A stretch of DNA of 64,000 nt from Escherichia phage LF82-41, in sequence record PV660463, one strand, 5' to 3'. Below are positions 17,341-47,272 of the stretch, one piece after another (the stretch's first letter is position 1; the number at the start of each line of letters is the position of its first letter). The position numbers and the translations under genes are program-made. Under the pieces are notes generated by a model. It did no database searches, was not told the DNA's origin, and saw nothing but the letters and a program-made list of their open reading frames with translations.

Positions 17341-17385
17341 TATCCAACGAGAGCATTATACTCTGCTCTCAAGAGTTTGTGCGTT
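17341..17385 (-). promoter_or_regulatory. early-promoter/stem-loop cassette (PeSL-like); near-identical copy at 47227..47272
   Basis: minus strand: -35 region, 17-nt spacer, perfect TATAAT embedded in palindrome GAGAGCA..TGCTCTC. Confidence 0.55.
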
Positions 17386-17623
17386 ATTTCGTGATAAGAT
17401 AATGTAAATAGTTTGCTTGACGAACACTGATATCAACACCCATATCAAAGATACCTTTATAGAACGGGTATTTGTTTTCAGTAGAATCTAGACTAAAAGC
17501 CTTTCCGCCACAACTAACGGTAATAGCATCAGTTAAAGTGTCATATACAAACTTAATAGTTGAGCCGTTCACTACAACTTCAAGACGTTTTTTCGATGTA
17601 ATAATGTCTAATTCTTGTTCCAT
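17384..17623 (-). CDS. hypothetical protein (79 aa)
   Basis: ORF. Confidence 0.5.
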   Translation of the reverse strand: MEQELDIITSKKRLEVVVNGSTIKFVYDTLTDAITVSCGGKAFSLDSTENKYPFYKGIFDMGVDISVRQANYLHYLITK

Positions 17624-17637
17624 GATATTCTCCTCAA

Positions 17638-17680
17638 ATTGGTAGGAAGAAGTGTTATCTTCCTACCATCATAAACTATT
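17638..17680 (-). repeat. stem-loop element (ggtaggaag..cttcctacc) in intergenic gap
   Basis: 9-bp inverted repeat between ORFs 17384..17623 and 17679..17891; possible promoter/terminator. Confidence 0.35.
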
Positions 17681-17891
17681 AACCGAACTTTTTAGCGCCT
17701 TTCCAGCCTTCGTACATAACTGCACAAGTCAATAGTACAGCATGTTGGCATTCTTTGTATTTGTAAATCCAGAACCAGCGTAAGAAGTCTTCATCCTCAA
17801 CGCCGTTGAGTTTCATATTGGCAAAGAATTCGGCACGTTCTTCACGAAGTTGCCATGACACAATATTTTCAGGATTCATTTTGTGTTCCAC
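17679..17891 (-). CDS. hypothetical protein (70 aa)
   Basis: ORF. Confidence 0.5.
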   Translation of the reverse strand: MEHKMNPENIVSWQLREERAEFFANMKLNGVEDEDFLRWFWIYKYKECQHAVLLTCAVMYEGWKGAKKFG

Positions 17892-18010
17892 GCCCCATTT
17901 TCATCGATGAACTTAATCCAGTCATTTACAGACCATTTAGTTGTATCACCCTTTGGATTAACATTTAAAGTATATAATCCCTGCTTAAAAAGCATTCGTT
18001 TGATATTCAT
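17876..18010 (-). CDS. hypothetical small protein (44 aa; from internal Met with GAGGA RBS)
   Basis: ORF 17876..18103 overlaps next gene; internal Met at 18010 has good RBS. Confidence 0.4.
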   Translation of the reverse strand: MNIKRMLFKQGLYTLNVNPKGDTTKWSVNDWIKFIDENGAWNTK

Positions 18011-18017
18011 AATTTCC

Positions 18018-18341
18018 TCAACTGTAACGATAACATTCGTTAGCTTTACGTTTGGCTTCAGTATGAGAAGTATTATAATCATACTCTTCTTTACTGTAAA
18101 CATCTTTTTTCAACTTACGAACTTCTTTGCGGAGTTGTCGATTCATTTCATTCTTGACTTCAGAATCAACTCCTTTCATACGTTTCCATTTATCTGAGCG
18201 GAAAATGTTTTCAACCATGTCTTTGTGGCTAACACCGTCAGGAGCTTTACGCTTACCAAAATAGTCATAATCGCGAACTTTCAAATCTTTACGACGATAT
18301 GTTTTACCCATAAGTACCTCAGAGGTTGATTGATACGACAC
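18018..18341 (-). CDS. hypothetical basic protein (107 aa)
   Basis: ORF; Lys/Arg-rich. Confidence 0.5.
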   Translation of the reverse strand: MSYQSTSEVLMGKTYRRKDLKVRDYDYFGKRKAPDGVSHKDMVENIFRSDKWKRMKGVDSEVKNEMNRQLRKEVRKLKKDVYSKEEYDYNTSHTEAKRKANECYRYS

Positions 18342-18567
18342 GTTTGATAAAATTCACTTCACTTACTGAAAGGTCTTTAAGACCGATTGATTCTAAACGC
18401 TGAGTAAGCGTCAACATCGGGATATAATCCCAATGAGTTTTATTTGCTTGATAAGTACGGACGCCATTAGCAATTTCAACATGTAAATCGGAAATGATAA
18501 TGAATACCAGTCGCTCGTCATTAACTTTAAGGGTTAGAACAACTTTCTTTGAGTCTAAACTAATCAT
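18319..18567 (-). CDS. hypothetical protein (82 aa)
   Basis: ORF. Confidence 0.5.
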   Translation of the reverse strand: MISLDSKKVVLTLKVNDERLVFIIISDLHVEIANGVRTYQANKTHWDYIPMLTLTQRLESIGLKDLSVSEVNFIKRVVSINL

Positions 18568-18746
18568 GGTTTAATTTCCTTTGCAATTGAACAGAAGATA
18601 CCACGGTCACAAAGCATTTCACCAATTTCCGGATATTTGATTGAACGGTACCAAACATCCAGGCTTGAAACTCTGGTTATCTGTACTGCATTACCGTTGA
18701 CAGAATAGTACTGGTCAACCTTAATTTCTTTATCTTCAATTGTCAT
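18564..18746 (-). CDS. hypothetical protein (about 60 aa from internal Met)
   Basis: ORF 18564..18866; Met MTIEDKEIK preceded by GAGGAAAAT. Confidence 0.45.
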   Translation of the reverse strand: MTIEDKEIKVDQYYSVNGNAVQITRVSSLDVWYRSIKYPEIGEMLCDRGIFCSIAKEIKP

Positions 18747-18757
18747 TTTATTTTCCT

Positions 18758-18805
18758 CTATAGTAGATGGTTTAATCTTAACACAACTATTGAGGATGTA
18801 AACTG
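18758..18805 (-). promoter_or_regulatory. early-promoter-like element (GTTTAC -35, 17-nt spacer)
   Basis: minus strand cagTTTACAtcctcaatagttgtgtTAAGAT; same family as other cassettes. Confidence 0.45.
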
Positions 18806-18911
18806 TTTTATGAAAATATTTTTGGTTTGAGAGGGGCACAAGGAGATAGTGAAGTGAAGATTCCAATAGATTATATTGGAAATGGGATAAAGAAGACCAG
18901 GCGGCACCTGG

Positions 18912-19245
18912 TCAATCTTCTATGATATCAGAGTCATATCCTAATGAAATCAAGGACTTTTTAAACTCTGCAATATTCTTTTGTTTCTTATCATTTAAAA
19001 ATATGACAGGATAACGAATATTAAGTGAAGTGAATCCTGCACGTTTAGCAAGAGATACGATTAAAGGACGGTCATATTCAATCTTACCATTATTAGTGAG
19101 GACTTTATAAAATGTATAAGGAGCATTGAGCTCCTTTAAAAGTTTTGTAACAGTATAACATCCTGGACAACGTCCAACTTCTTCAGGGATGCCATAAATT
19201 TCAATCTTGTTCTTTAAGTTCGAGTTTTGTTCCACGAGAAATAAT
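18912..19245 (-). CDS. nrdH: glutaredoxin-like NrdH redoxin (start codon uncertain, possibly non-ATG)
   Basis: KIEIYGIPEEVGRCPGCY redox motif; N-terminal part of ORF 18912..19364 overlaps another gene so true start lies near 19245. Confidence 0.6.
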
Positions 19246-19518
19246 TCCTTGGTAAGCCCAATAAGGAGGATTAACAGAATCCTCACCAGAGTTTTCTTCA
19301 GGAAAATAAACCTGGATAACGAAGCCGGATTCATCAAAGGTAAAATAAACCGTAGGCAGTTCACCTAACAAATCGGCACGAGCGTTGATTTCTTCGAGGT
19401 CTTGTTCACGTCCAGCCCAGAAGCTTGGGTTCAGACTACATTCATAGAAATAATAGTCATTACCGAACATATCAAAACCATTCCAACTCTCTACTACATA
19501 CCGCTCAAAACTAATCAT
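19201..19518 (-). CDS. hypothetical protein (105 aa)
   Basis: ORF. Confidence 0.5.
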   Translation of the reverse strand: MISFERYVVESWNGFDMFGNDYYFYECSLNPSFWAGREQDLEEINARADLLGELPTVYFTFDESGFVIQVYFPEENSGEDSVNPPYWAYQGIISRGTKLELKEQD

Positions 19519-19520
19519 AA

Positions 19521-19736
19521 TTAAGCCTTTTTATCAAGAACAGAATTCAGTTTATTAGTAATTTTGTCCAAACGTTCATTGAATTCGCTGGAGGATAAAC
19601 CCTTTTCTGGAGAAATTAAACTAATCACGAAAAATACACCAGTAAAAGGAATAAGAAAAATAGCTCCAACTGCCATAAACAAAAAGAACGTTACAGTTGT
19701 AAGAAAATCAGCTAAACCTTTACGAAATTTGTACAT
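19521..19736 (-). CDS. small membrane protein (71 aa)
   Basis: ORF with long hydrophobic segment FLFMAVGAIFLIPFTGVFFVISLI. Confidence 0.5.
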   Translation of the reverse strand: MYKFRKGLADFLTTVTFFLFMAVGAIFLIPFTGVFFVISLISPEKGLSSSEFNERLDKITNKLNSVLDKKA

Positions 19737-19846
19737 ATTTACCCTTAATTAACTAAGTATTGATAATCATTAAACTATATTGCGAATAAAATTCTGGACC
19801 AAAACGAAAAATCATATCATTTATAGTATCCATAATGTAATTCAAT

Positions 19847-20317
19847 TTAATCATGTTTCCACACCCCATCGGTATTTGACCAAAGCCGCTGATTATCTGA
19901 TCCTCGCCACAGCTTTTTAGTCGGAAGATTTTTCTCATACTTCCCATCAATAATAACATCAACATATTTAAGCATTTCTAGTTGTTTAATATCTTCAAAC
20001 TTATATCCTGTCCACAACCAAATGCTTTTATTGGGATAAAGATTTTTTACTGTTTGAGCAATGCAATGAATAACAACTCGGTTATCAGGATAGAGAGGGT
20101 CACCTCCGGTTATAGTTAATCCTTCTATATAATCATTATTCAAATATTCAATTAATTGTTCTAGTGTTTCACCAGTGAATGGAATACCATTTCTAGCATT
20201 CCATGTTGATTTATTATAACACCCTTCGCATTTATGCAAACAACCCGTAACGAAAAGAACGACCCTGCATCCCGGGCCATTCACAAAATCGCAAGGATAA
20301 AATCTATCATAATTCAT
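19847..20317 (-). CDS. nrdG: anaerobic ribonucleotide reductase activating protein (radical SAM)
   Basis: 156 aa; CxxxCxxC-type cluster (FVTGCLHKCEGCYN); directly downstream of nrdD. Confidence 0.9.
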   Translation of the reverse strand: MNYDRFYPCDFVNGPGCRVVLFVTGCLHKCEGCYNKSTWNARNGIPFTGETLEQLIEYLNNDYIEGLTITGGDPLYPDNRVVIHCIAQTVKNLYPNKSIWLWTGYKFEDIKQLEMLKYVDVIIDGKYEKNLPTKKLWRGSDNQRLWSNTDGVWKHD

Positions 20318-22131
20318 TGGTGTTTAACCCTATGCATGATTTCTTTATTTTTACCGAGATTAAATCCGCGTTCGTTCGGATTTCCTAAATAACCGCATGT
20401 TCTTCTTATGGTGTTCATCTTTTTAGGATCAGTTTCTCCGCAAACTGAACAAACAAATCCGTTTTCAGTAGGAGTCATTTCATGGGTACTTCCACATGTA
20501 AAACATTTATCCACTGGCATATTAACACCAAAATAATCTAAATGTTGTGCAGCATAATCCCAGACGGCCTCAAGTCCCTTTAAATTGTTTTTCATATCTG
20601 GAAGTTCAACATAAGAAATGTGACCACCTGTCGCAATGAAATGATATGGCGCTTCACGAGAAATCTTTTCAAACGGAGTAATATTTTCTTCTACTGAAAC
20701 GTGGAAACTGTTAGTGTACCAGCCTTTATCGGTAACATCTTTTACACTTCCATATTTTTCTGTATCGAGTTTACAGAAGCGATAACAAAGGTTTTCAGCA
20801 GGAGTAGAATACAAACTAAAAGCAAAACCAGTTCTTTCAGTCCACTGTTTAAGATGAGCATTCATTTTAGTTAAAATTTCTTGTCCAATATCACGACCAA
20901 CAAGAATATTCAATTCATGAATACCGATGTATCCTAAAGACACTGAACTTCTACCGTTTTTAAATAACTCAATTATATCGTCATCAGGTTTAAGACGAAC
21001 CCCGAATGCACCTTCTTGGTAAAGAATAGGAGCAACAGTCGCTTTAACTCCTTTTAAGGAACTAATTCTACATATCAAAGCTTCAAAACATAAATCCATT
21101 CGTTCATTGAATAATTCAACAAATTTCTGTTCATTGAACTGTGTTCCAATATAAGAATCTAATGCGATGCGAGGAAGATTCAGTGTTACAACACCGAGAT
21201 TATTACGTCCATCAAGAATTTCATTACCAGTCGAATCTTTCCATACGCTCAAGAAACTACGGCAGCCCATTGGAGAAACCGGAACTGAAGAACCAGTAAT
21301 AGCTTTATTATTCTTAACCGAAATAATGTCAGGATACATTCTTTTGCTTGCACATTCTAACGCAAGTTGTTTAATATCATAGTTCGGATCATCTTTATAA
21401 AGATTAACACCTTCTTCAACAAACATAACAAGTTTAGGAAAAATAGGAGTTATCCCATCACGACCAAGACCTTTAATGCGGTTTTTAAGAATTGCCTTCT
21501 GAATCATTCGTTCAGTCCAATCGGTTCCCGTACCAAATGTAATTGTTACAAAAGGCGTTTGTCCGTTTGAACTAAAGAGAGTATTTACTTCATATTCATA
21601 AGCTTGGAATGCATCGTATACGTCTTTTTCTGTTTTAGATTGAGCATAATTCAACGCATCAGCTATTTGCCATTTTTCTGCATCCTCAATATGTTTTGCA
21701 TAGGTGCGTTTAACATAAGGAGAAAGTACTTTATCTACATTAGCAAAAGTCGTTCCGCCGTATTGATGTGAAGCAACCTGTGCAGTAATTTGTGCCATAA
21801 TTGCAGTAGCAACACCAATCGATTTAGGCGTTTCAATTTGAGCATTGCCTAATTTAAATCCATTCTCAAGCATCCCCTTTAAATCGACTAAACAGCAATT
21901 AGTAAATGGAAGAGCAGGAGAATAATCAATATCATGCATATGAATGATTCCGCTTTCATGCGCATTCATAATAAAAGACGGGACCATATTTTTGGCAATG
22001 TGCTTAGACACAATACCAGCCATAAGGTCCCGTTGAGTTGGAAAAACACGAGAATCTTTATTAGCATTCTCGTTTAAAAGGTCTTTATTAGTTTTATGAA
22101 TTAATCCTTCAATTTCTTTTTCAATTTTCAT
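20314..22131 (-). CDS. nrdD: anaerobic ribonucleoside-triphosphate reductase, intron-less
   Basis: 605 aa; C-terminal CxxC...CxxC zinc site and glycyl-radical region; continuous ORF. Confidence 0.95.
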   Translation of the reverse strand: MKIEKEIEGLIHKTNKDLLNENANKDSRVFPTQRDLMAGIVSKHIAKNMVPSFIMNAHESGIIHMHDIDYSPALPFTNCCLVDLKGMLENGFKLGNAQIETPKSIGVATAIMAQITAQVASHQYGGTTFANVDKVLSPYVKRTYAKHIEDAEKWQIADALNYAQSKTEKDVYDAFQAYEYEVNTLFSSNGQTPFVTITFGTGTDWTERMIQKAILKNRIKGLGRDGITPIFPKLVMFVEEGVNLYKDDPNYDIKQLALECASKRMYPDIISVKNNKAITGSSVPVSPMGCRSFLSVWKDSTGNEILDGRNNLGVVTLNLPRIALDSYIGTQFNEQKFVELFNERMDLCFEALICRISSLKGVKATVAPILYQEGAFGVRLKPDDDIIELFKNGRSSVSLGYIGIHELNILVGRDIGQEILTKMNAHLKQWTERTGFAFSLYSTPAENLCYRFCKLDTEKYGSVKDVTDKGWYTNSFHVSVEENITPFEKISREAPYHFIATGGHISYVELPDMKNNLKGLEAVWDYAAQHLDYFGVNMPVDKCFTCGSTHEMTPTENGFVCSVCGETDPKKMNTIRRTCGYLGNPNERGFNLGKNKEIMHRVKHQ

Positions 22132-22601
22132 TTTAAACTCTTTCTAAGCTGCTTTTTGAATGAAGCTATTAATTGTGTTTTAGTATCAGATTCATTATAT
22201 TCAAATCCTCTTTGAAGCATCTCGGTCATCATTTCCTCTTTACCTAGTCTTGAGAACTCTTTAGTTTTGTCTGGAACAAAATTAGGATGGATATTATTAT
22301 CAGAATAATCTTGTTTCAAATAAGCAAGAAGAGCTTCAAGCCATTCGAGGTAATCAACGTTTTGACCTTTAAGACCAGAACGGTTGAACTTATGCTTCAT
22401 TTGACCTTCTGCTGCATTGCACAGGTTACATAGTAAACCACGAACCTTACCAGCTTTTGGCCCGTTTAATTCATGGTCGTGGTCAAGATGGTTACCTTGA
22501 ACATCAGGGTCTAATTCACGGTGGCAAATAGGACACTTACCGTTCTGTGCATCATAAAATTTTTGTTTTTCTTCTTTGTATAATTTGCCAGATAATAACA
22601 T
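22128..22601 (-). CDS. 49: endonuclease VII (Holliday junction resolvase)
   Basis: 157 aa, MLLSGKLYKEEKQKFYDAQNGKCPICHRELDPDVQGNHLDHDHELNGPKAGKVRGLLCNLCN matches T4 gp49. Confidence 0.95.
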   Translation of the reverse strand: MLLSGKLYKEEKQKFYDAQNGKCPICHRELDPDVQGNHLDHDHELNGPKAGKVRGLLCNLCNAAEGQMKHKFNRSGLKGQNVDYLEWLEALLAYLKQDYSDNNIHPNFVPDKTKEFSRLGKEEMMTEMLQRGFEYNESDTKTQLIASFKKQLRKSLK

Positions 22602-22631
22602 AATAAACCCTTACCTTAAATAGATAAGGGT

Positions 22632-22639
22632 ATTTATAA
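22632..22639 (-). promoter_or_regulatory. late promoter candidate (TATAAATA on minus strand) upstream of gene 49
   Basis: exact T4 late-promoter octamer about 30 nt upstream of gene 49 start. Confidence 0.5.
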
Positions 22640-22640
22640 T

Positions 22641-22820
22641 TTAGTAAACGTTATAAAAGCCTCGATGGAAACGCTTATACTGACGAATCATTCTTTTAGT
22701 AGGACGAGTTTCTGAAATAATTGAAGTCCTCATATTTGGATTGTTTGGGGCCCCAATCATAATAAATTTCCAAGATTTTTGCCCATTTTTTCTTTCACCA
22801 TAAAATAGTTCAGTTTTCAT
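22641..22820 (-). CDS. small basic protein (59 aa), paralog of 23245..23442; not in ORF track
   Basis: MKTELFYGERKNGQKSW...SETRPTKRMIRQYKRFHRGFYNVY; shares KNG..W..PN..RPTKR..R..KR.HR.FY..Y with the upstream paralog. Confidence 0.5.
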   Translation of the reverse strand: MKTELFYGERKNGQKSWKFIMIGAPNNPNMRTSIISETRPTKRMIRQYKRFHRGFYNVY

Positions 22821-22829
22821 AATAAACCT

Positions 22830-23243
22830 TTAACTTAAACGTCTTTCTAAGTATTCAATGTATTCCGCTGCGGCTTGCATCAGATTACCTTCATAACCGT
22901 CATTATTTTCTTGACCAGCTAATTTAGCTAAAGCATAAGAAATACGTTCACCTTCGAATTCGCCAAGTCCACCATCACAAACTACTTGGTCAATTTCTTC
23001 GAGTTCATCTATTGAATGGGATTCCCAGAAGCACCAAAGAGAAGTATCACGGTCATAGATGCAAAGTTTCTCACCTGTGTTCAACATCACTTCGATAATG
23101 CCATGGTCGCCATAACCATCTTCGGTAGTAGTACCAATTACCTTGAGGATTGTTCCTTTCTTTAATTCAGGAAACTTGACTTGTAGTTCTTCGTCTTCTT
23201 TAACAATCTTGAACCATTTACCGCGAGTTTCAGAAATATTCAT
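22830..23243 (-). CDS. hypothetical acidic protein (138 aa from internal Met)
   Basis: ORF 22830..23381; start set at MNISETRGKWF (ATG 23243) abutting stop of upstream gene. Confidence 0.55.
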   Translation of the reverse strand: MNISETRGKWFKIVKEDEELQVKFPELKKGTILKVIGTTTEDGYGDHGIIEVMLNTGEKLCIYDRDTSLWCFWESHSIDELEEIDQVVCDGGLGEFEGERISYALAKLAGQENNDGYEGNLMQAAAEYIEYLERRLS

Positions 23244-23244
23244 A

Positions 23245-23442
23245 TCAATATTCTCTATAAAAGTTACGATGAGAACGTTTAGCTTTGCGAAGCTGACGTT
23301 TAGTAGGACGAACTGTAAATGGTTGTCCAGAGAAAAAATTCGGATCGGTTTTAATAAGCAAATACCAATCATGCTTGCCATTTTTTAATAAACGGTACAA
23401 TAATTTAACTTGCATAATAATCTCTTCCCATTTCCATATCAA
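23245..23442 (-). CDS. small basic protein (65 aa), paralog of 22641..22820
   Basis: C-terminus FTVRPTKRQLRKAKRSHRNFYREY. Confidence 0.5.
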   Translation of the reverse strand: MIWKWEEIIMQVKLLYRLLKNGKHDWYLLIKTDPNFFSGQPFTVRPTKRQLRKAKRSHRNFYREY

Positions 23443-23543
23443 TTAATTCATTTATTGAAGGTTCATCATAACATGGTTCTTCGTCGTTGTAAACCGTTTC
23501 GACGTCTGGCTCGACAGTCTCCCATCGAGCAGAATACCACAGT

Positions 23544-23900
23544 TTAACCCCGGAGTTTATTGAGCTCTTCATAATCAATCCAGGATTCTAGCCCTGACGG
23601 CAGGTCACATTCAATGTTCCACAGAAGCTCTTCAATGGCTTGCAGGCGATTATATTCTTCAACAGTAATAGTAACCATTGGTGCAACCGGTTCTGCCTTT
23701 TTAACAATCATATCGTTCATCAGGATGTAAAGGTCATCACGAACGACAGTGTCGTTCCATCCCCATGATTTGGCTTCGTAAGCTAATGTTGAAGGTAGCA
23801 CATTTAAAACTTCAATAATAGTTGGAGCATCAGGACCAAGTTCATTGGCACAAACTTCGTATACATCCTGGAAATCTTTAAGATTTAATGAATATGTCAT
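23544..23900 (-). CDS. hypothetical protein (118 aa)
   Basis: ORF. Confidence 0.55.
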   Translation of the reverse strand: MTYSLNLKDFQDVYEVCANELGPDAPTIIEVLNVLPSTLAYEAKSWGWNDTVVRDDLYILMNDMIVKKAEPVAPMVTITVEEYNRLQAIEELLWNIECDLPSGLESWIDYEELNKLRG

Positions 23901-23918
23901 TTAAAATTTTCTCGCAGG

Positions 23919-26162: not shown

Positions 26163-26195
26163 TCATTATACTCCAACCATCCTTGGTTGTAAACT
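26163..26195 (-). promoter_or_regulatory. early promoter cassette (TTTACA-17-TATAAT) with palindromic spacer; core repeated at 27182..27214
   Basis: minus strand cagTTTACAaccaaggatggttggagTATAATgaa; 27-nt core identical to next copy. Confidence 0.6.
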
Positions 26196-26198
26196 GAT

Positions 26199-27158
26199 TT
26201 ATGATTTTAATGCATTCATTGCGTTAAAAAGTTTAGAGTACTGCAACTGGAGATTCGTTACAACACTTTGAGCATCACGAAGCTTAGCTTGTGCTTTGTC
26301 AAGTTCAACGGACAGTTGGTCTACAGTAGCCTTGATTTGATTGTAATGGTAATCTTCGACCGGAAGAAGGTCATTAGAAACATTTAGTTTTACTGCAGAC
26401 AGTTTGCACACATTTGGCAAACCTTTAAACATTGATTTTCCCGAAGTAGAATATGAACCTAGAACTTCAGCATTACCAATCGGGGTTGCAGTAATTGACG
26501 CTTCAAATGTTGCATTTTCCTTTTTAAGATTTTGATAGTATTCAGAGTCTTTGTGCCACCACGGCGCAGGAACCTTTTTACCAATAGATACACGAGCCTG
26601 GATAGCGATATGGCCCTTATTCTTGATAGGGTAGATAATATTAAGCTCACGAGAATAAATTGCTTTAATCTGGTGGATATTATCACCTAAAACTTCCAAC
26701 GCTTGGTGGAATACACGAGCAACGTTATCATTCTTAGGTTTATACGTAAGAGTGAACTCGTTCTCACTGATAACCATGATTTCTAACTTATCGTAAGTAT
26801 ATTTCAAATGTTTCATGTTAATTGCTTGAGGACGAATACGAGAAGCAATGGCCATCAGATTGTTAAGGTTATTCCGGAACTGCTTAGCGAAATATTGACC
26901 TTCACCGCCAATACAAAAATTACGAAGTTTCTGTTTGGCCAATAAACGGCTGAACTCACCATTTTTAATGAACTCTTTAACGGGTGTGTTAGTAACGCAT
27001 TCAAATTGGGTAAACATACGAGAAGTAATCCCATAATATGAACAGATTTCCTCAATCTCTTCAGGAGTCTTTACAGGCATACGGATAGGATTAGGTCCTG
27101 GAGTGTATGCGTTCGAGGTAAATTCTTTGATAAGTTCTCTACGTGTAATAAAAGCCAT
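26199..27158 (-). CDS. hypothetical protein with C-terminal coiled coil (319 aa)
   Basis: ORF; same size and architecture as neighbours. Confidence 0.7.
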   Translation of the reverse strand: MAFITRRELIKEFTSNAYTPGPNPIRMPVKTPEEIEEICSYYGITSRMFTQFECVTNTPVKEFIKNGEFSRLLAKQKLRNFCIGGEGQYFAKQFRNNLNNLMAIASRIRPQAINMKHLKYTYDKLEIMVISENEFTLTYKPKNDNVARVFHQALEVLGDNIHQIKAIYSRELNIIYPIKNKGHIAIQARVSIGKKVPAPWWHKDSEYYQNLKKENATFEASITATPIGNAEVLGSYSTSGKSMFKGLPNVCKLSAVKLNVSNDLLPVEDYHYNQIKATVDQLSVELDKAQAKLRDAQSVVTNLQLQYSKLFNAMNALKS

Positions 27159-27181
27159 TTTATATTCCTCATGTTGAAAAA

Positions 27182-27214
27182 TTTATTATACTCCAACCAT
27201 CCTTGGTTGTACAT
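27182..27214 (-). promoter_or_regulatory. early promoter cassette (TGTACA-17-TATAAT), repeat of 26163..26195
   Basis: attatactccaaccatccttggttgta core identical. Confidence 0.6.
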
Positions 27215-30333: not shown

Positions 30334-30362
30334 CTTTTTAAAAATATTTTAACCCCCTAAAG

Positions 30363-30378
30363 GGACCCGAAGGTCCCC
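30363..30378 (-). terminator. stable UUCG-tetraloop hairpin at 3' end of gene 30383..30649
   Basis: gggacCCGAAGgtccc; related hairpins at 8295 and 48150. Confidence 0.45.
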
Positions 30379-30382
30379 ACAT

Positions 30383-30649
30383 TTACTTATCGCACTTAGC
30401 AACATAATTAGGCATATCACAGAATACGGAGCGTGTAACTACTCGACCCTTTGACCATGCTTCAGTTGCTTGTCCTGCCGTGCTATTAATATAGCTTGAT
30501 TTAATGTTCTCAATACCCTGAGAATGTGATGCATTTACCGAACCATTTGAAGGCCCGGAAGACTGGCTACCACCAGCTCCTGCACCCGTGGTAGCACCAA
30601 CAGAGAACGCCATCATTACTGCGAATAAACCAATTACTAATTTTTTCAT
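30383..30649 (-). CDS. small secreted protein (signal peptide, Gly/Ser-rich, 2 Cys)
   Basis: 88 aa; MKKLVIGLFAVMMAFSVGA signal-like N-terminus. Confidence 0.6.
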   Translation of the reverse strand: MKKLVIGLFAVMMAFSVGATTGAGAGGSQSSGPSNGSVNASHSQGIENIKSSYINSTAGQATEAWSKGRVVTRSVFCDMPNYVAKCDK

Positions 30650-33435: not shown

Positions 33436-33483
33436 TATAGTAAGTAAGGACTACTATAACACAACCTGAGGAGAAGTAAACTG
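33436..33483 (-). promoter_or_regulatory. early-promoter cassette (GTTTAC-17-TATAGT)
   Basis: minus strand cagTTTACTtctcctcaggttgtgtTATAGT. Confidence 0.5.
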
Positions 33484-33492
33484 ATAGATGCC

Positions 33493-33520
33493 AAAAAGCC
33501 CCAACCATAAGGAAGGGGCT
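33493..33520 (-). terminator. intrinsic terminator (hairpin + U-run on minus strand) after rI
   Basis: agccccaaccataaggaaggggct preceded on plus strand by A-run; near-identical to 48842..48871. Confidence 0.6.
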
Positions 33521-33526
33521 AGTAAA

Positions 33527-33829
33527 TTAGATAGATGTAGGCTCTAATTTTATTTTCATGAACTCGGCAAATTGTCTGGCAGTTTTTATGCCTTGTTCAT
33601 GACATTCAAATGCATCATCACAGGGGCTATTTTTGTAATGCTTTGCCATATACTTATAGAATTTTTCAGAATTCTCAACATTTTGAATTTCAAACAAAGT
33701 ATATACGTTTTTAATCCCTGATTCCATAAAGTTATCAAAATATGGGTCAATATGTGCAGTACCAACGATAGGAGTTGTTGCTGCAAAAAACCCCAGCATC
33801 GCCATGACAGCTATCGCTCTTAAGGCCAT
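33527..33829 (-). CDS. rI: lysis-inhibition regulator RI (periplasmic antiholin)
   Basis: 100 aa; MALRAIAVMAMLGFFAA...DPYFDNFMESGIKNVYTLFE matches T4 RI. Confidence 0.85.
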   Translation of the reverse strand: MALRAIAVMAMLGFFAATTPIVGTAHIDPYFDNFMESGIKNVYTLFEIQNVENSEKFYKYMAKHYKNSPCDDAFECHEQGIKTARQFAEFMKIKLEPTSI

Positions 33830-37085: not shown

Positions 37086-37137
37086 CTCCTCTAGTTGACA
37101 AGTCTATAGTAACACAACTAGAGGAGAAGTAAACTAC
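37086..37137 (-). promoter_or_regulatory. early-promoter/stem-loop cassette with 12-bp inverted repeat
   Basis: ctcctctagttg...caactagaggag; minus-strand GTTTAC-17-TACTAT; upstream of regB. Confidence 0.55.
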
Positions 37138-40050: not shown

Positions 40051-40054
40051 AATT

Positions 40055-40109
40055 TCCTCCAAGTAGTTGATGAATGTATAGTATCAAATCCCTTGGAGGA
40101 AGTAAACAC
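40055..40109 (-). promoter_or_regulatory. early-promoter/stem-loop cassette (PeSL-like) upstream of denV
   Basis: tcctccaag...cttggagga inverted repeat; minus-strand GTTTAC -35. Confidence 0.5.
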
Positions 40110-40903: not shown

Positions 40904-40909
40904 TATTAC

Positions 40910-41368
40910 TTATAGGAGGGTAGTGAGCACCTTATATAATGATTTGCCCATTACATATTCCCATTGAGAAGGTTTAATTAAAGCGAATGCATCAAATTCA
41001 GGAATCTGTCGTCCGTTTGGGAATGTATGATAGGAATTGCAAACACTGTTTCTGAATTGCTCGTGCTCTACAGGGATGGTATATAGGAACAGATGAATAT
41101 TCTTATTGTCTGAGTAATTATGTTCACCTAGGTCTTTCAGGAAGGCAGGGTCATATTGTGTAAACCCAGTTTCTTCTTCGCATTCACGAATAGCGGCTTC
41201 AATAGGAGATTCACCAGGTTCGACACGGCCTTTAGGAATATCCCACCGATGAGCTAATGCACCTTTAGGACGAGAACCAGTTACACGACCCATGAATAAT
41301 TCTTTATCTTTTGTCATGAAGATAATACCGGCTGATAGTTCTTTCACTTTATTTTTCTTACTCATCAT
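40910..41368 (-). CDS. nudE: Nudix hydrolase
   Basis: Nudix box GRVEPGESPIEAAIRECEEETG. Confidence 0.85.
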   Translation of the reverse strand: MMSKKNKVKELSAGIIFMTKDKELFMGRVTGSRPKGALAHRWDIPKGRVEPGESPIEAAIRECEEETGFTQYDPAFLKDLGEHNYSDNKNIHLFLYTIPVEHEQFRNSVCNSYHTFPNGRQIPEFDAFALIKPSQWEYVMGKSLYKVLTTLL

Positions 41369-41609
41369 CTCGGTCCCATGATTTGGCCATCAATTCGGAC
41401 ATAAATTCTTCAATGCGCGTTTCTTTAGATGGACTTTCACTATTAGAGACCGCAAGTTTGTAATCTGCAATAGGACAGAACATATCAAGGCCCGTATTAA
41501 GATCGTCTTTGATTTTTTCTTCTGACACATCTTTATCATATGTGTACAGATAACTATCACATGATTCTGATTTAATGTAAATTGCTATACTCATCTCAAA
41601 TTCCTGCAT
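41358..41609 (-). CDS. hypothetical protein (83 aa)
   Basis: ORF. Confidence 0.5.
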   Translation of the reverse strand: MQEFEMSIAIYIKSESCDSYLYTYDKDVSEEKIKDDLNTGLDMFCPIADYKLAVSNSESPSKETRIEEFMSELMAKSWDRDDE

Positions 41610-42082
41610 TCGGTAATAAAACGTTCAACTTCATTATTCTTGGCCTTTATCTTGTCTTTACGTTCCTGTAAACTACTTTTAACAAGATTAATAATTATGC
41701 CTATAGTACCTCCACCAATAATACCACCAATAATACTTACGATAGTAGATGCTAATAATATAGCGATAATATCTGGTATGGCAAAGGCACTTACTTTAGT
41801 ACTAAAAAACCATACCGACGGTACAAATATAATCCATCCTGTTATCCATTGGCACTTATTGAAAAACTTTTCAAGCTCAACTTGAGTTGTTCGTATTACT
41901 TCATCGATAGGTTGATATCCATTAATGTATCTGTTCACGATAATACCTGCTGGCTGGTCGATTTTAAATTCTTGGCAAATACGTTTCACTAAGTAGGATG
42001 GACATCCTGTCCAATCCACTGAATAGTACGAAATACCTTCATTACCGTCGTCAATATTAGACCAATATGTTTTGTTAATCAT
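41591..42082 (-). CDS. membrane protein (163 aa)
   Basis: ORF with two hydrophobic segments including Gly/Ile-rich stretch. Confidence 0.6.
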   Translation of the reverse strand: MINKTYWSNIDDGNEGISYYSVDWTGCPSYLVKRICQEFKIDQPAGIIVNRYINGYQPIDEVIRTTQVELEKFFNKCQWITGWIIFVPSVWFFSTKVSAFAIPDIIAILLASTIVSIIGGIIGGGTIGIIINLVKSSLQERKDKIKAKNNEVERFITECRNLR

Positions 42083-42768
42083 TACCAGCCTTCCATAGGG
42101 AATTCCAGATAAACTTGGGCATTGACACGAATTTCATTGGTAATCTTTTTAACTCGGTCTGTATTACGAGATACACGTCCGAACCAACGCCATCCATTAC
42201 TAATTGCACGAGAACCAGTGTGCCATGTTTGCCAATCGAACTGAAGAAGAGTACGGTCTGGAGCTTCCCATTTCTCTAGTTCACCTTTTTCAATTTTTTC
42301 GAGGACTTCTTTGTGCCACTGGCGATAGATAAGTTCGCCATCAGGAATCTGACTGAACTCTGCAGTTCCTGTTGCAAAATGAGTAGGACACACATCAGCG
42401 TTAACAAGACCAAGAATATGTTCAGACAAATAGCGAGGATTGTCATAGTCAGGTTGTCCTGCAGTAATAAAATGTTGACCAACCGGAATATCCGGGCGTG
42501 GTACGTCATCATGGTGATAACCAGGAATAGCAGGGTACCAGCCAGGCATCAGCATGTGGACTCGTGAATCAAATACAACCTGGTCGGTGTTCCAATCATC
42601 CGGCAAGTTCATGATGAAGCTGCGAGTAATAGGACCGCCGTTATTATAAGCAAATTCTAAACTACAGTTGAAGAACATAGGCTCGTTCTTGATTTTATCA
42701 TTAGAAATACCGCCGGCAAAACCACCTACTGCACGAGCTTGACTATTAAACACTTTAGAACTATTCAT
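42082..42768 (-). CDS. hypothetical protein (228 aa)
   Basis: ORF. Confidence 0.65.
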   Translation of the reverse strand: MNSSKVFNSQARAVGGFAGGISNDKIKNEPMFFNCSLEFAYNNGGPITRSFIMNLPDDWNTDQVVFDSRVHMLMPGWYPAIPGYHHDDVPRPDIPVGQHFITAGQPDYDNPRYLSEHILGLVNADVCPTHFATGTAEFSQIPDGELIYRQWHKEVLEKIEKGELEKWEAPDRTLLQFDWQTWHTGSRAISNGWRWFGRVSRNTDRVKKITNEIRVNAQVYLEFPMEGW

Positions 42769-42769
42769 A

Positions 42770-43075
42770 TTATTTTCCTCGACATTCTTTAATGAAATTT
42801 TCTAGATTGGTAGATTCAATAGCTTTTTTACGAGCTTCTGCGTGTTCTTCTTCGGACAATTTACGTTTATAATTGACCCAGACATTATGGTCGAAACCAG
42901 TCGTGGCATATAATATCAAAGCTCCGACGAATAATAAAAACGGTGATAAAAATATACAACCAGGAACACCATCCATATCGTAAGCCTTTTGTAATACTGC
43001 AACAGAAAGAGCTGCGTAAAAAAGTGATACAAATATTGTTAAAAGACCAATTCGGTTGGTTTCTGTTAATTTCAT
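42770..43075 (-). CDS. small membrane protein (101 aa)
   Basis: ORF with two TM-like segments. Confidence 0.55.
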   Translation of the reverse strand: MKLTETNRIGLLTIFVSLFYAALSVAVLQKAYDMDGVPGCIFLSPFLLFVGALILYATTGFDHNVWVNYKRKLSEEEHAEARKKAIESTNLENFIKECRGK

Positions 43076-43091
43076 AATATTCTCCTCATGT

Positions 43092-43134
43092 TTTAATAGG
43101 ACTACTATAACATAGTCCTATCAGTTTGTACACT
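43092..43134 (-). promoter_or_regulatory. early-promoter/stem-loop cassette (PeSL-like)
   Basis: gataggactactataacatagtcctatc palindrome. Confidence 0.5.
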
Positions 43135-43352
43135 TATTTTGACATTTCTTCGATGTCACGACGATACCCATCACGAACTTCACGAAGAGCTTCAAGGCCA
43201 CACATAGGCTCGATACCAGTAATGTGAACTTGATTAATCTGATACTCTACATCTTCTAACTGAGCGAAAACATAACGACGTTCTGCTGCACAACCAGGTT
43301 TAGCTTTACCGAAACGTTTATTCAAAGTAGTCATTTTTATATCTCCATTCAC
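43134..43352 (-). CDS. hypothetical protein (72 aa)
   Basis: ORF. Confidence 0.5.
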   Translation of the reverse strand: MNGDIKMTTLNKRFGKAKPGCAAERRYVFAQLEDVEYQINQVHITGIEPMCGLEALREVRDGYRRDIEEMSK

Positions 43353-43359
43353 TCATTTG

Positions 43360-43403
43360 TTTTGATAGGTCTATAGTATCAACAACTACAGACCTTGTAA
43401 ACT
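43360..43403 (-). promoter_or_regulatory. early-promoter/stem-loop cassette (PeSL-like)
   Basis: ttgataggtctatagtatcaacaactacagaccttgtaaactg. Confidence 0.5.
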
Positions 43404-43414
43404 GTTTTGTGAAA

Positions 43415-44371
43415 TTATTTGAAAGGTTTTACCATATGAAAGTTTTGTTTAAAACGTTTTACATAATCGTCATGTCCTAAGCTTTGGTACATACTTACAA
43501 CTTTGCTGTAGTTTTCCCAAGCGTATTCACGGAACCAGCCTGACGTGATTGAAGTACAGACCTTTTCAAGAGCCATCATAAAACTATCACGTGGATGGAT
43601 TTCAAAGTTATTAGGAATCTGAGAACGTTCTAACGCTAGTACACATGATTCTTCGTATACGCCAGCCAATTTGACCATTTCCGGTAATGATTCGAACTTC
43701 TCGCGTGAGGTCATGACTTCAGAACCATCTTTCATATAAAATGTATACGCTGGACGGTCCGTTAGTGCAATGGCTTCGTGAATAGTATCATGGTCATACG
43801 TATAGATGTCATCTTTAAAGAATGCGCTTTTAGAAGTGTCAAGAACTGGGTGAGCATAGTTCAAGGTTTCTTTCTGGCGTTTCAGCATAATTTCATTAAG
43901 TTCATCGTTCAGTGTAACACCTTTACCACGAAGATACTGAATATGGTTCATAGTCTTTAAAAAGAATGGATTATTTTTCTTGAAACGATGGGACATCTTA
44001 ATTGCAAGGCACATCTCAGGAGTTGCCCAGTAAAACCCGTTCAAACGGTCTTTAGTCAAATTTTTCTTGGCGTATTTTAAAAGGTCATAAGAAGACGTGA
44101 AATCTTCAGGAGTGAGTTCACCGACTAATTCACGGACATTAGTGATTGCCGGAACAATATATGCTTCAAAATGAGTTTCGCGCCCATTATGGAAGCATTT
44201 GAAAACTTGGACATCAGGGTTATCTTGGTGAACATATACACCCATCATTTGATTTTTGAATGCATTCCAAGAACCTTGGTCCGCAATAAAGTCCCAATCA
44301 CTATTTTTAATAGCGCTAGAATCAATAAGACCGTGATAGTGAAGTGCACGAGAACCAATAACTAACATCAT
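43415..44371 (-). CDS. hypothetical protein (318 aa)
   Basis: ORF; weak NTase-like GS...DxD spacing at N-terminus. Confidence 0.7.
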   Translation of the reverse strand: MMLVIGSRALHYHGLIDSSAIKNSDWDFIADQGSWNAFKNQMMGVYVHQDNPDVQVFKCFHNGRETHFEAYIVPAITNVRELVGELTPEDFTSSYDLLKYAKKNLTKDRLNGFYWATPEMCLAIKMSHRFKKNNPFFLKTMNHIQYLRGKGVTLNDELNEIMLKRQKETLNYAHPVLDTSKSAFFKDDIYTYDHDTIHEAIALTDRPAYTFYMKDGSEVMTSREKFESLPEMVKLAGVYEESCVLALERSQIPNNFEIHPRDSFMMALEKVCTSITSGWFREYAWENYSKVVSMYQSLGHDDYVKRFKQNFHMVKPFK

Positions 44372-44399
44372 AATATTTTCCTCGGATTAATTCATTAAC

Positions 44400-44651
44400 T
44401 TAAATTTCACGACATGCGATATTATATTCATCCCAGAGGTCATCATGTGAAGCCTCTACCAATGGAACGATTGTACCGTTTATGTCTTCATTATAAGGGC
44501 AAATTGTACAGTGCGCATCTTCGAATCGGATGCCTTTGTGTTCAGATTTTTTATAACGCATATCGAATATCTTTGCAAACTTTTCACGAGTAATGGTTTT
44601 ACCAACCACTTTGGTTCCGATACTTTCGTAATAAATCATTGTGGACTCCAT
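44400..44651 (-). CDS. hypothetical protein (83 aa)
   Basis: ORF. Confidence 0.5.
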   Translation of the reverse strand: MESTMIYYESIGTKVVGKTITREKFAKIFDMRYKKSEHKGIRFEDAHCTICPYNEDINGTIVPLVEASHDDLWDEYNIACREI

Positions 44652-44654
44652 TTG

Positions 44655-44699
44655 TTTTGATAGGACTACTATAACATAGCCCTATCTTGTTGTAAACTG
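44655..44699 (-). promoter_or_regulatory. early-promoter/stem-loop cassette (PeSL-like)
   Basis: ttgataggactactataacatagccctatc...tgtaaactg. Confidence 0.5.
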
Positions 44700-44701
44700 T
44701 T

Positions 44702-44899
44702 TTAGCAAGAATAACTAGATGATACCCAGCCTTGAACAGTGATACTATTGTGGGATAATGAGATCGCGTCCTGGAGATTCAGACCTGCGTTATCTTCAAT
44801 CCATAATGTAACTTCTTCGCGTTCTTCTGTTGCAATTTGGAACAGGTTTTCTAGAGCAGCTACTGCGGTACGTACAGCACAATCTAATTCACGAGACAT
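44702..44899 (-). CDS. small protein, member of tandem family with C-terminal GWVSSSxxC
   Basis: 65 aa ending QGWVSSSYSC. Confidence 0.55.
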   Translation of the reverse strand: MSRELDCAVRTAVAALENLFQIATEEREEVTLWIEDNAGLNLQDAISLSHNSITVQGWVSSSYSC

Positions 44900-44908
44900 A
44901 TTGTTTCC

Positions 44909-45181
44909 TTAGCAAGTGTGAGAAGATGCGACCCAACCACCAGTTTCGAGGCTCAGGTTGTAGTCGTATTGGTAAACGTCAGCCCATTCGGCATAACCGT
45001 TTTTTGTACAACGTTCAAGATCGGCTTTAAGATGTCCGGGTGAATGATAGGTTCCACCCATACCATAAGCTGGGTACAAGTTGAATGTTGTGTTTTGTTT
45101 ATCAGCAATTTCTTTGGCAGCCTCAATAGCGGCATAGATTTTTGCTACAGCTTCAGCCAGTTCGGTTTGTTCTTTAGACAT
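44909..45181 (-). CDS. small protein, member of tandem family with C-terminal GWVASSxxC
   Basis: 90 aa ending GGWVASSHTC. Confidence 0.55.
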   Translation of the reverse strand: MSKEQTELAEAVAKIYAAIEAAKEIADKQNTTFNLYPAYGMGGTYHSPGHLKADLERCTKNGYAEWADVYQYDYNLSLETGGWVASSHTC

Positions 45182-45190
45182 AATGATTCC

Positions 45191-45496
45191 TTAGCACAAC
45201 GCAGAAGACGAAACCCAAGCACCTTCAGTAATAACGTATCCATTACCTTCACGCTTAACATCGCCGCCATTATTTTCAATTTCATCTTTCATCCACTGGG
45301 ATACGATTTCACCCTTAGGATAATAAGTACGACCGCTACCATAATCACCTACAGAAAATGATACGGCATATTGGTCTGCGATCTTTGTTGCTTCTTCTTC
45401 GATACGTTCAGCTTGATTTAGAAGTTTATAAATTGCATCTGAAGCGGATTTGGCATCATTAAATTCTGGTACTTTAATTTCAATAATCTTACTCAT
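45191..45496 (-). CDS. small protein, member of tandem family with C-terminal AWVSSSxxC
   Basis: 101 aa ending GAWVSSSALC. Confidence 0.55.
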   Translation of the reverse strand: MSKIIEIKVPEFNDAKSASDAIYKLLNQAERIEEEATKIADQYAVSFSVGDYGSGRTYYPKGEIVSQWMKDEIENNGGDVKREGNGYVITEGAWVSSSALC

Positions 45497-45594
45497 TTTC
45501 TACATTCCTTAATAAAGTTTTCGATTGTTTCATTTTCACGTCTAGCTAGGAGTTCATTATAACTAATCATTTGAGAAGCGTAAACAGCATAAAT

Positions 45595-46017
45595 TCAGTT
45601 CAGGCTTTTGCATCTTATTTCCTTAACGAATTCCATAGCTTCTTCATATTCATACTTTTTAACAGCTTCATCATACTGAGCTTGGGCTTTTGCGCACTGA
45701 ACTTTCCATTCTCTTAATCTGGCTCTGTGATGACGGCCTTGGTGCCAATATCCCACCCAATTAATAGGCATTAATAAAAACGGTACAATAAGTGGTGCGA
45801 CGAACATTAATGAAAATGCTGCATCAGACGATATAACTTCACTAGAATCTAAAACAGCTCCTATAATCATAAAGATTAAAAATGCTAAAGCTAAAATAGG
45901 GCCAAATAGTACTTCATTTGGGATTAATTTACGCTTGTATTCATACGCCCAGGGCTTACTTGGCATGTATAGGGTTGGCTTTGACATATTCTCTACATTC
46001 CATAATAAATTGCTCAA
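45595..46017 (-). CDS. membrane protein (start uncertain)
   Basis: 140 aa ORF with two hydrophobic segments; overlaps upstream ORF so true start probably internal. Confidence 0.5.
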   Translation of the reverse strand: MSNLLWNVENMSKPTLYMPSKPWAYEYKRKLIPNEVLFGPILALAFLIFMIIGAVLDSSEVISSDAAFSLMFVAPLIVPFLLMPINWVGYWHQGRHHRARLREWKVQCAKAQAQYDEAVKKYEYEEAMEFVKEIRCKSLN

Positions 46018-46558
46018 GGATTAAATTGTTAGTGAAATTAGGACTAACAACCATAGTTTCATAAAGCGCATCAATAGCACTTAAAGCATCAACTCTTTTA
46101 AGCAAAGGCTTGCCTTCATACATAGTTTCAGAATCGATGATTAACGTAAAGTAATATTTTTTATTATCGACTAGAACTTCTGTATCGATATAAAACATAT
46201 TAGACCTCAGAAGCTTATCTCTAAAACCATAATAATCTTCAGAGCGTTCGCTGATATATTCCCATTCAGTGTTTAAACAACAAACAGACCACGTAGGAGC
46301 AACGAAATCAGTGAATCTAATATCATGGTCTGCAACTAGTTTAGCAATAGCTCCGATATCATGAATCATAATACCTGGGGCTAATAAAGATTTTCTGCTA
46401 TGGCTAGCCGTTTTCTCGGTGGTCTCATAAGAAGACGACCAGTACCATTTACGTCCGGTTGCAACATATCGTAATGAATCAACTAAGGACGTAGGTGGAT
46501 TTACCTTATCTCGGAACTCTTCGAACATTGAGTCAATATCATTATTTTGGTTTCGCAT
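45956..46558 (-). CDS. hypothetical protein (about 200 aa)
   Basis: ORF 45956..46579. Confidence 0.6.
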   Translation of the reverse strand: MRNQNNDIDSMFEEFRDKVNPPTSLVDSLRYVATGRKWYWSSSYETTEKTASHSRKSLLAPGIMIHDIGAIAKLVADHDIRFTDFVAPTWSVCCLNTEWEYISERSEDYYGFRDKLLRSNMFYIDTEVLVDNKKYYFTLIIDSETMYEGKPLLKRVDALSAIDALYETMVVSPNFTNNLILEQFIMECREYVKANPIHAK

Positions 46559-46607
46559 GTTAACTCCTTTATTATCCAAAAGGAGGACCGGAGTCCTCCG
46601 TATTATT

Positions 46608-47201
46608 TTATTTCAAAGAGTTAATATATTCTTGTACATCAGCAGAAGTGGTTTCGACACCAGCTGGAGTGCCATTGAACGTTTCAACACGAGTCAGAGT
46701 GTCTTCGATATCAACCTTAGTCAGTGCAGCGATTTCAATTACATCGTCAGCGGTAGAGATACCAAGGGCATTGGCTGCTCGAGTTTCACGAATGTATTCG
46801 AGTTTGATTGCCAGGTTCTGACGAGCATCGTCAAGTTCAACCACCTTACGAGCAATTTCAATTCGCATAGCGGCATACCCGTCAGCTTTTGTATTAAGTT
46901 GTTCGGCAGTTCGACGATACAGAAGACCAAGCTTAGCATGCATGGTAACATCTTGTCCTTCAGCCAGGAGCTTACGAATTTCACGTTCCTTAGAAGCGGC
47001 TTGTTTGTTCTTTTCATTAACAAGTTCGCGAATACGTTTTTCTTCATTAATAGATTTAACAGAAGCCGTTTTTAGTTCTTTGATTTGGGTAATCAACTTA
47101 TCTGCAGCTGCGTTATACTGTTCTTCGACAGTCAGATTTTTAGCCATAGCAGTACCCAGTTTAGTGCGGATAAATTCAACAAGTTTCTTCAGTGTGTTCA
47201 T
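46608..47201 (-). CDS. coiled-coil protein (about 197 aa)
   Basis: ORF 46608..47216; highly helical Lys/Glu/Ala-rich. Confidence 0.6.
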
Positions 47202-47226
47202 ATTATTACCTTTCAATTGGTGGTTT

Positions 47227-47272
47227 ATTATCCAATGAGAGCATTATACTCTGCTCTCAAGAGTTTGTAAAT
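47227..47272 (-). promoter_or_regulatory. early-promoter/stem-loop cassette; near-identical copy of 17341..17385
   Basis: ccaatgagagcattatactctgctctcaagagtttgtaa; minus strand TTTACA-17-TATAAT. Confidence 0.55.

Follow-up and report, generated by a model that had tools for sequence, protein, structure and literature searches.

Two nearly identical sequences lie 30 kb apart in a stretch of 64,000 nucleotides from Escherichia phage LF82-41 (record PV660463; this whole stretch is called the window below), each of them filling a gap between two genes. Our analysis as a whole makes it quite probable that both are cassettes composed of an early promoter, used by the sigma-70 RNA polymerase of the host, and a stem-loop embedded in it, and that they form a T-even subfamily of the elements known as PeSLs (early promoter plus stem-loop).

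The window derives from an RB69-like T-even phage (Mosigvirus), whose closest relatives are p000v, the LF82 series and JS09 (94-98% identity), and it is collinear, in reverse orientation, with positions 61,579-125,879 of p000v. Genes around both sites, including early genes, are located on the minus strand. The gp55 gene (15865..16440, minus strand) is a landmark near the first copy (site 1), and the genes for tRNA-Arg and tRNA-Met at 49.5 kb, also on the minus strand, lie near the second (site 2). Among the proteins encoded on the flanks of the two cassettes one belongs to DUF7570, one to Phage_FRD3, and two have no family. When read on the minus strand, both intergenic gaps have the same composition: the stop codon of the preceding gene, ACAAACTCTTGAGAGCAGAGTATAATGCTCTC(A/G)TTGGATAATAA, a Shine-Dalgarno (SD) sequence and an ATG, with the stop codon 0-3 nt ahead of the -35 position and the ATG 35-42 nt past the -10.

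Anatomy of the two cassettes

On the plus strand the repeat is a 44-mer, TTATTATCCAA(C/T)GAGAGCATTATACTCTGCTCTCAAGAGTTTGT, whose two copies, at 17337..17380 and 47225..47268, have the same (direct) orientation and differ solely in C17348 versus T47236. A sequence-only reading of this DNA had pointed to dispersed, near-identical repeats with one or two substitutions; their existence was borne out and alignment gave exactly one difference, while the length is 44 nt rather than 45 and the copies are shifted by about 4 nt from where they had been placed. Neither the 44-mer nor the 22-nt core of the hairpin occurred in any of 100 dinucleotide-preserving shuffles. With the flanks included, the two sites are 81% similar across 78 nt.

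A complete early promoter with an embedded stem-loop was found by promoter scan and folding at site 2 (47225..47271, minus strand), which reads AAAAAATAA-TTTACA-AACTCT-TGAGAGCA-GAG-TATAAT-GCTCTCA-TTGGATAATAAA. In the consensus scan it appears as TTTACA-17-TATAAT, matching the sigma-70 consensus at 11/12 positions. On the minus strand, the -35 TTTACA (47271->47266) is followed by the 5' arm of the stem, TGAGAGCA (47259->47252), the -10 TATAAT (47248->47243) and the 3' arm, TGCTCTCA (47243->47236), whose last base, A47236, is the predicted +1; the shared beginning of the 5' untranslated region (5'-UTR), TTGGATAATAA, ends at 47225. Further on, at 47199..47224, the remainder of the 5'-UTR, the SD GAAAGG and the ATG (47201->47199) of a 197-amino-acid open reading frame (ORF) are found, for which no Pfam family was detected. 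On the other side, the -35 adjoins the stop codon of the FRD3-family ORF and an A-rich tract, TTGATTAAAAAATAA, placed where an UP element would be (47272..47290, minus strand); this ORF occupies 47272..47499 on the minus strand (PF05798, E 5.7e-38).

The cassette of site 1 (17337..17383, minus strand; promoter scan and folding) has a degraded -35. Its identity with site 2 ends within this element, the position of which (17383->17378) is taken by CGCACA, as also in p000v, and the consensus scan calls no promoter there. The 5' arm (17371->17364), the -10 TATAAT (17360->17355) and the 3' arm (17355->17348) are all retained. The differing base is the predicted +1 itself, A at site 2, where it closes the stem by a U-A pair, and G17348 at site 1, where the closing pair is U.G. 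An SD, AGAGGAAAA, and the ATG (17317->17315) of a 110-amino-acid DUF7570 ORF (PF24454, E 1.8e-39) follow at 17315..17336, on the minus strand. Thus, the proposal of a promoter cassette at both copies holds for site 2 but not, as far as the -35 is concerned, for site 1. The perfect TATAAT noted inside a hairpin was found at both, on the minus (coding) strand and specifically in the loop of (T)GAGAGCA/TGCTCTC(A).

In both cassettes the stem is a 7-8 bp inverted repeat with an 8-nt loop containing the -10, and the predicted +1 is the last base of its right arm. Folding of the minus-sense RNA gave -13.8 kcal/mol (z -3.8) for site 2 and -13.5 kcal/mol (z -1.9) for site 1. A search of Rfam returned nothing relevant at either cassette, and a literature search for maps of T4 start and end sites that would show 3' ends at such hairpins found none.

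Conservation of the stem

Pairing in the stem was examined in 17 distinct variants of the cassette, which for a stem of 8 bp gives 136 cells (the site-1 copy of phage phiE142 lies outside this set). It was kept in all 136 cells, with double, compensatory changes at 3 of the pairs, while slid registers gave merely 35-53% pairing. The stems encountered were GGACC/GGTCC, GGGTC/GACCC, GGAGC/GCTCC and AGAGC/GCTCT together with their wobble versions, and GAGAGA/TCTCTC at site 1 of phiE142 represents a further compensatory change. Every cell departing from Watson-Crick pairing (15/15) was a G.U when read on the sense strand. Read on the other strand, the same 15 cells are A.C, and pairing drops to 89%. 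These cells correspond to at least 5 independent wobble positions or types, all on the same strand. A similar bias was seen genome-wide in p000v, where stems around the -10, read on the sense strand, comprised 146 Watson-Crick, 15 G.T and 2 A.C pairs. The sense fold was mostly more stable than the antisense one, in several cases by 5-8 kcal/mol.

Compensatory changes combined with G.U pairs confined to the sense strand indicate, as judged from the variants compared, that the stem around the -10 is under selection for pairing. The selected structure would be a single-stranded one on the sense strand, most likely RNA, as this bias argues against both a protein-binding palindrome in duplex DNA and a symmetric cruciform.

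The wider promoter family

The cassettes are part of a larger set of early promoters. Over 18-52 kb of the window, the minus strand carries about 20 promoters with the pattern T(T/G)TAC-N17-TAYWRT, all of which precede an SD and an ATG, and p000v has 42. They agree with the early consensus TTTACW-N17-TAYWAT of T4/PST (PMC4122927), and 57 early promoters were predicted previously in RB69 (PMC1524935). Pattern matching yielded 19 promoters in the window, and in 10 of them the -10 is enclosed by a stem of 7 bp or more; with the left arm shuffled (1000 trials), such promoters numbered 3.2 on average and 9 at most. In some sister promoters (47557, 27213 and 26193) the stem-loop is located wholly within the spacer.

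The subfamily to which sites 1 and 2 belong can be written as (G)T(T/G)TAC-AAACTCTTG-N5-AGAGTATAATG-N5', and its -35, AAACTCTTG spacer, AGAG and TATAAT do not vary across genera. A scan of IMG/VR revealed 30 cassette loci, ahead of ndd, motB-like, DUF7570 and other early genes. Mosigvirus genomes carry 3-4 copies each (up to four places by BLAST), those of p000v being at 79440 (site 2), 108505 (site 1), 153450 (ndd) and 13290, the last with a different stem. T4 has one blast-detectable copy, upstream of motB (AF158101.6 7182-7214), where the promoter-like core is identical at 30/33 bases. T4 early promoters combine a GTTTAC -35, TATAAT and an A-rich UP element; the core that the motB copy shares with the Mosigvirus cassettes is (G)TTTACAAACTCTTG-N5-AGAGTATAATG-N5', placed likewise ahead of an early gene. 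The motB stem GGGACC/GGTCCC and the GAGAGC/GCTCTC stem described here differ by two compensatory pair changes.

Hairpins of other kinds accompany some of the sister promoters. UUCG-loop hairpins of the GGGGACCTTCGGGTCCC type occur directly upstream of early promoters at 30335..30389 and 48123..48177 (minus strand), a third similar stem, with the loop reading CGAA in plus-strand orientation, occupies the same kind of position at 8270..8324, and a classical stem with a U tract precedes another early promoter at about 33490..33530 (minus strand). The two promoters checked behind such upstream hairpins, 30330 and 33480, have no embedded stem. Counted over the window promoters, a classical terminator lies directly upstream of 2/9 hairpin-less promoters versus 0/10 with an embedded stem, so the idea that embedded hairpins and separate upstream terminators are distributed in a complementary manner is supported weakly by these numbers and was not adopted.

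At 37106..37133, 33453..33480 and 40078..40106 (minus strand), sequence following the -35 (e.g. TTCTCCTCTAGTTG) is complementary to the SD region downstream (CAACTAGAGGAGAA). There, the ribosome-binding site would be sequestered just in read-through transcripts and not in those initiated at the promoter itself, an arrangement reminiscent of the way translation of T4 genes e and soc is controlled.

Apparent homogenisation of dispersed copies

Beyond the invariant parts of the subfamily, sites 1 and 2 are identical at the five variable stem positions and in the first 12 nt of the leader, and they differ there from the promoter of the DUF7570 orthologue in JS98-like phages; the leader (G)TTGGATAATAAA of site 1 is common to site 2 and not to that orthologue. 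In JS98-like contigs the DUF7570 and ndd promoters have GGACC and GGGTC stems, respectively, while in Mosigviruses AGAGC is found at both. On this sequence pattern, the three Mosigvirus copies have the appearance of dispersed promoters homogenised by gene conversion.

Recombination of small modules at the cassettes

Comparison with relatives, proposed by the sequence-only reading as a way to look for breakpoints at the repeats, revealed them at both sites. In a metagenomic relative (L028), an additional ORF of about 77 amino acids with its own promoter is inserted at site 2 between the FRD3 gene and the cassette, and both junctions fall in T(G/T)(C/T)ACAAAC, i.e. in the -35 of the site-2 cassette. 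At site 1, an ORFan module encoding 79 amino acids (ORF79; 17384..17623, minus strand) is located between a -35 remnant and the cassette that lacks its -35. The contigs taken to be JS98- and VR5-like lack ORF79, and there GTTTAC, the cassette and the DUF7570 gene come immediately after the homologue of the upstream gene. In phiE142, ORF79 is about 75% identical and both flanks are much better conserved, with the similarity switching at the bounding elements. A MotA-box-like sequence inside ORF79, TTTGCTTGA (17411..17436, plus strand), 10 nt ahead of TATCAA, is probably a chance match: T4 middle promoters have a wider spacing, and there is no gene downstream of it on the plus strand.

The upstream junction of ORF79 (17624..17678, minus strand) consists of GTTTAT (the -35 remnant), a hairpin GGTAGGAAG-ATAACACTT-CTTCCTACC, an SD and an ATG; it has no usable -10 in the window and matches what has been described as a degraded PeSL. 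In p000v (L004, about 8205-8245) the 9-nt loop of this hairpin is exactly reverse-complemented (AAGTGTTAT), with hardly any change in the flanks. A promoter, TTTATG-17-TATCTT, can be read in this orientation, whereas in that of the window its -10 is lost. The window orientation is represented by 15 phage records at >=99% identity; 4 records fall in the identity band of the flipped form, among them the 3 listed by name (both p000v entries and NicPhage), and the loop itself was read only in p000v. Exact-match scans of IMG/VR found neither orientation, while the phage collection showed both. To judge from the two sequences, this looks like a quasi-palindrome flipped by template switching.

Exchange between promoters was also observed elsewhere. 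About 300 nt upstream of site 2, a neighbouring early promoter, TGTACA-17-TACTAT, with its stem-loop in the spacer (47529..47557, minus strand), is a hybrid of the two p000v promoters that flank an additional 54-amino-acid ORF (gp260), which points to a promoter-to-promoter indel. Of the 10 gaps between the window and p000v, 3 are bounded by promoters on both sides (47493-47537, 43122-43395 and 26191-27181), and 2 more on one side. The region 43104..43401 (minus strand) contains a 64-amino-acid ORF (43334->43143) between two early promoters with stem-loops, where p000v has a single promoter and no ORF; it is a promoter-to-promoter indel as described for PeSLs. At 26165..27213 (minus strand), two nearly identical promoters, (T/G)TACAACCAAGGATGGTTGGAGTATAAT, 1020 nt apart, surround a segment missing from p000v, which has one promoter; the region contains two neighbouring ORFs of about 320 amino acids in p000v and three in phiE142, an indication that a small gene family has undergone unequal crossover. 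Two further differences from p000v involve homing endonuclease genes: against the tRNA-Arg of the window (49537..49623) stands a segment of about 700 nt with such a gene (gp263) in p000v (76250-76952), and a second one, gp090 (p000v 70633-71306), is absent from the window, where the corresponding position is 54919..54945.

A mobile element, such as a miniature inverted-repeat transposable element, was rejected as the source of the cassettes, the copies being found at orthologous intergenic positions across genera. Neither terminal repeats nor target duplications were evident in the sequences read, in which no dedicated scan for them was run.

The suggestion that the repeats serve as substrates of homologous recombination thus holds for indels and allele swaps of small ORFs breaking at the cassettes and their sister promoters, and not for the 30-kb interval between them. 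Inversion of this interval is impossible, as the repeats are direct. Deletion had been suggested as well; however, the interval is collinear with p000v (79.4-108.5 kb), and the constructed deletion and circle junctions were found in none of 50,697 phage records. The interval contains lysozyme gene e, the endonuclease VII gene, nrdD/G, tk, regB, denV and others. In T4, genes e and 49 are needed for growth. A 30-kb deletion should therefore be lethal, and a reciprocal crossover, yielding a deletion or a duplication, is unlikely to survive. Phage phiE142, considered as a possible deletion variant on account of its 121-kb record, proved not to be one: its first 100 kb keep the early region collinear, with both sites present and the interval intact.

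Discussion

The features found at sites 1 and 2 are those of a known class, of which the cassettes are a clear example, and not of a new kind of element. PeSLs were described in RB49/phi1 (Arbiol et al. 2010, PMC2839356), and in T4/PST and KVP40/nt-1 (Comeau et al. 2014, PMC4122927), with the same intergenic build: a stop codon in an AT-rich stretch, an early promoter of the sigma-70 type, and the SD and ATG of a small ORF. All of this is present at site 2, and site 1 has the -10 and the spacer only of the promoter; in both, a stable stem-loop (8-bp stem, 8-nt loop) is embedded, and in phi1 a stem-loop overlapping the -10 represents one of the two most frequent arrangements. Published PeSLs are concentrated among ORFans and at breakpoints of indels and replacements between close relatives. 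The cassettes too are clustered among small ORFs of obscure function in hyperplastic regions, and breakpoints between close relatives coincide with both of them. 'Half' or degraded copies have likewise been described (PMC4122927), and site 1 and the element upstream of ORF79 correspond to them.

Certain differences should be mentioned. The present cassettes come from an RB69-like Mosigvirus and not from relatives of RB49, T4/PST or KVP40. Stems of RB49 have the form G(n)...C(n), and those of T4/PST, AGNA...TCNT, lie upstream of the promoter; the stems described here are of neither form. The fixed spacer (AAACTCTTG...AGAG), conserved across T-even genera, distinguishes the subfamily from published PeSLs, and a sense-strand G.U bias and homogenisation of dispersed copies have not been reported for the latter. 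Terminator activity and formation of mini-circles were shown for RB49, while the present cassettes were analysed at the level of sequence.

The proposed mechanism is as follows. Along the minus strand, the stop codon of the upstream small ORF is followed by the -35 TTTACA, a spacer with the left arm in its 3' half, the -10 in the loop, the right arm at -7 to +1, the predicted +1 itself (the differing A/G), a short leader, the SD and the ATG. With the predicted +1 at the very end of the right arm, the hairpin would form just in read-through RNA coming from upstream; transcripts initiated at the cassette would lack it, save for the 3'-terminal base of the right arm. In read-through RNA, it might act as an attenuator devoid of a U tract, or as a stabiliser of 3' ends, and insulate the small-ORF cassettes from each other. 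A role in attenuation, or in marking and stabilising 3' ends, was proposed for the stem-loops of PeSLs, and demonstrated for one of them in RB49 (PMC2839356). The near-identity of the two sites probably results from ectopic gene conversion in the Mosigvirus lineage, with a tract of about 45 nt copied between paralogous promoters, and recombination of the ORF79 module into the promoter of site 1 probably cost this site its -35.

Could the likeness of the copies come purely from selection on promoter strength, with no recombination between them and with the inverted repeat incidental? Constraint does explain much of the identity, the -35, the AAACTCTTG spacer, AGAG and TATAAT being invariant across genera. 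However, it leaves aside the five variable stem positions and the 12 leader nucleotides, which are also identical and yet differ from the JS98-like orthologue, as well as the pairing kept via double changes and the identity of site 1 in spite of its missing -35; we consider this explanation improbable, though the least so of the alternatives. That the inverted repeat is a palindromic operator, at which a dimeric phage or host protein would cover the -10 and shut off this group of early promoters, is the one we would credit least. The repeat is centred on the -10, and the shut-off of T4 early promoters is still unexplained (PMC2988021). Nevertheless, a sequence-specific duplex site should have conserved arms and show no difference between strands, whereas the arms vary while staying complementary (GGACC, GGGTC, GGAGC, AGAGC, GAGAGA; sister stems GATAGGACTA and AGGATGAT) and the exceptions are strand-asymmetric G.T pairs. 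An operator was rejected on account of this covariation.

The remaining alternative retains the hairpin and places it in DNA: the non-template strand would fold, exposing the -10 as single-stranded DNA in the loop and aiding opening by the sigma-70 RNA polymerase, in the manner of the hairpin promoters of phage N4. Promoters of the N4 virion RNA polymerase likewise have key bases in or beside a hairpin, the loop of the present stems always holds the -10, the right arm crosses the discriminator and ends at the predicted +1, and wobbles restricted to the non-template (sense) strand would be tolerated by a hairpin there too. On the other hand, the sigma-70 open-complex bubble extends from -11 to +2. 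The stem, reaching from about -28 to +1, goes well past it, and folding would destroy the duplex linking the -35 with the -10. The position of the stem relative to the -10 is also variable, lying wholly in the spacer in the three sister promoters mentioned above; site 1 keeps its stem despite the lost -35; and in other T4-like phages the stem-loop is upstream of the promoter (PMC4122927). N4 relies on an injected polymerase of its own, with 5-7 bp stems and 3-nt loops, while the promoters here are of the host sigma-70 type, with loops of 8-17 nt and evidence favouring RNA. The annotation of p000v, as read, lists a late sigma factor and RNA-polymerase modifiers and no phage-encoded RNA polymerase, and a hairpin promoter of the N4 type was rejected for the 8-nt loop containing a sigma-70 -10. 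A DNA hairpin thus appears very unlikely to us. An equally slight chance is given to its extension, in which such stems constitute sigma-70 'hairpin promoters' whose loop could be flipped by template switching, turning the promoter off or on; a flip of this kind is thinkable with the -10 placed between the arms of an inverted repeat, and the neighbouring element at 17624..17678 shows one.

Several points weigh against our own explanation, in which the cassettes are PeSLs acting at the level of RNA. The stems are followed by AUUGGAUAAUAAA or GUUGGAUAAUAAA, with no U tract, and there were no terminator-like calls at either cassette, which makes classical intrinsic termination unlikely, and a Rho-independent terminator was rejected; true terminators, with a UUCG loop and a U tract, are present elsewhere in the window. 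The -35 of site 1 is poor (3/6), with neither a TGn motif nor an A-rich tract upstream, and this site may be a weak or dead promoter retaining just the hairpin and the -10. Promoter activity, +1 positions and any 3' ends are predictions. The bias of wobbles towards the sense strand fits a hairpin in the non-template DNA strand equally well. The counts of wobbles and covariations include related sequences, so that independent events are fewer than cells, and gene conversion is deduced from a pattern across few lineages.

With the cassettes assigned to PeSLs, the scheme proposed for relatives of RB49, T4 and KVP40 extends to RB69-like phages. They provide a clean example in which one promoter subfamily can be traced across genera, with the stem kept by compensation and ORF modules exchanged at the cassette. 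Two aspects go slightly past the published description, namely the constraint on the stem, which acts on the sense strand only, and the seeming homogenisation of copies 30 kb apart. For annotation and engineering of phages, such cassettes mark natural boundaries of modules and strong early promoters.

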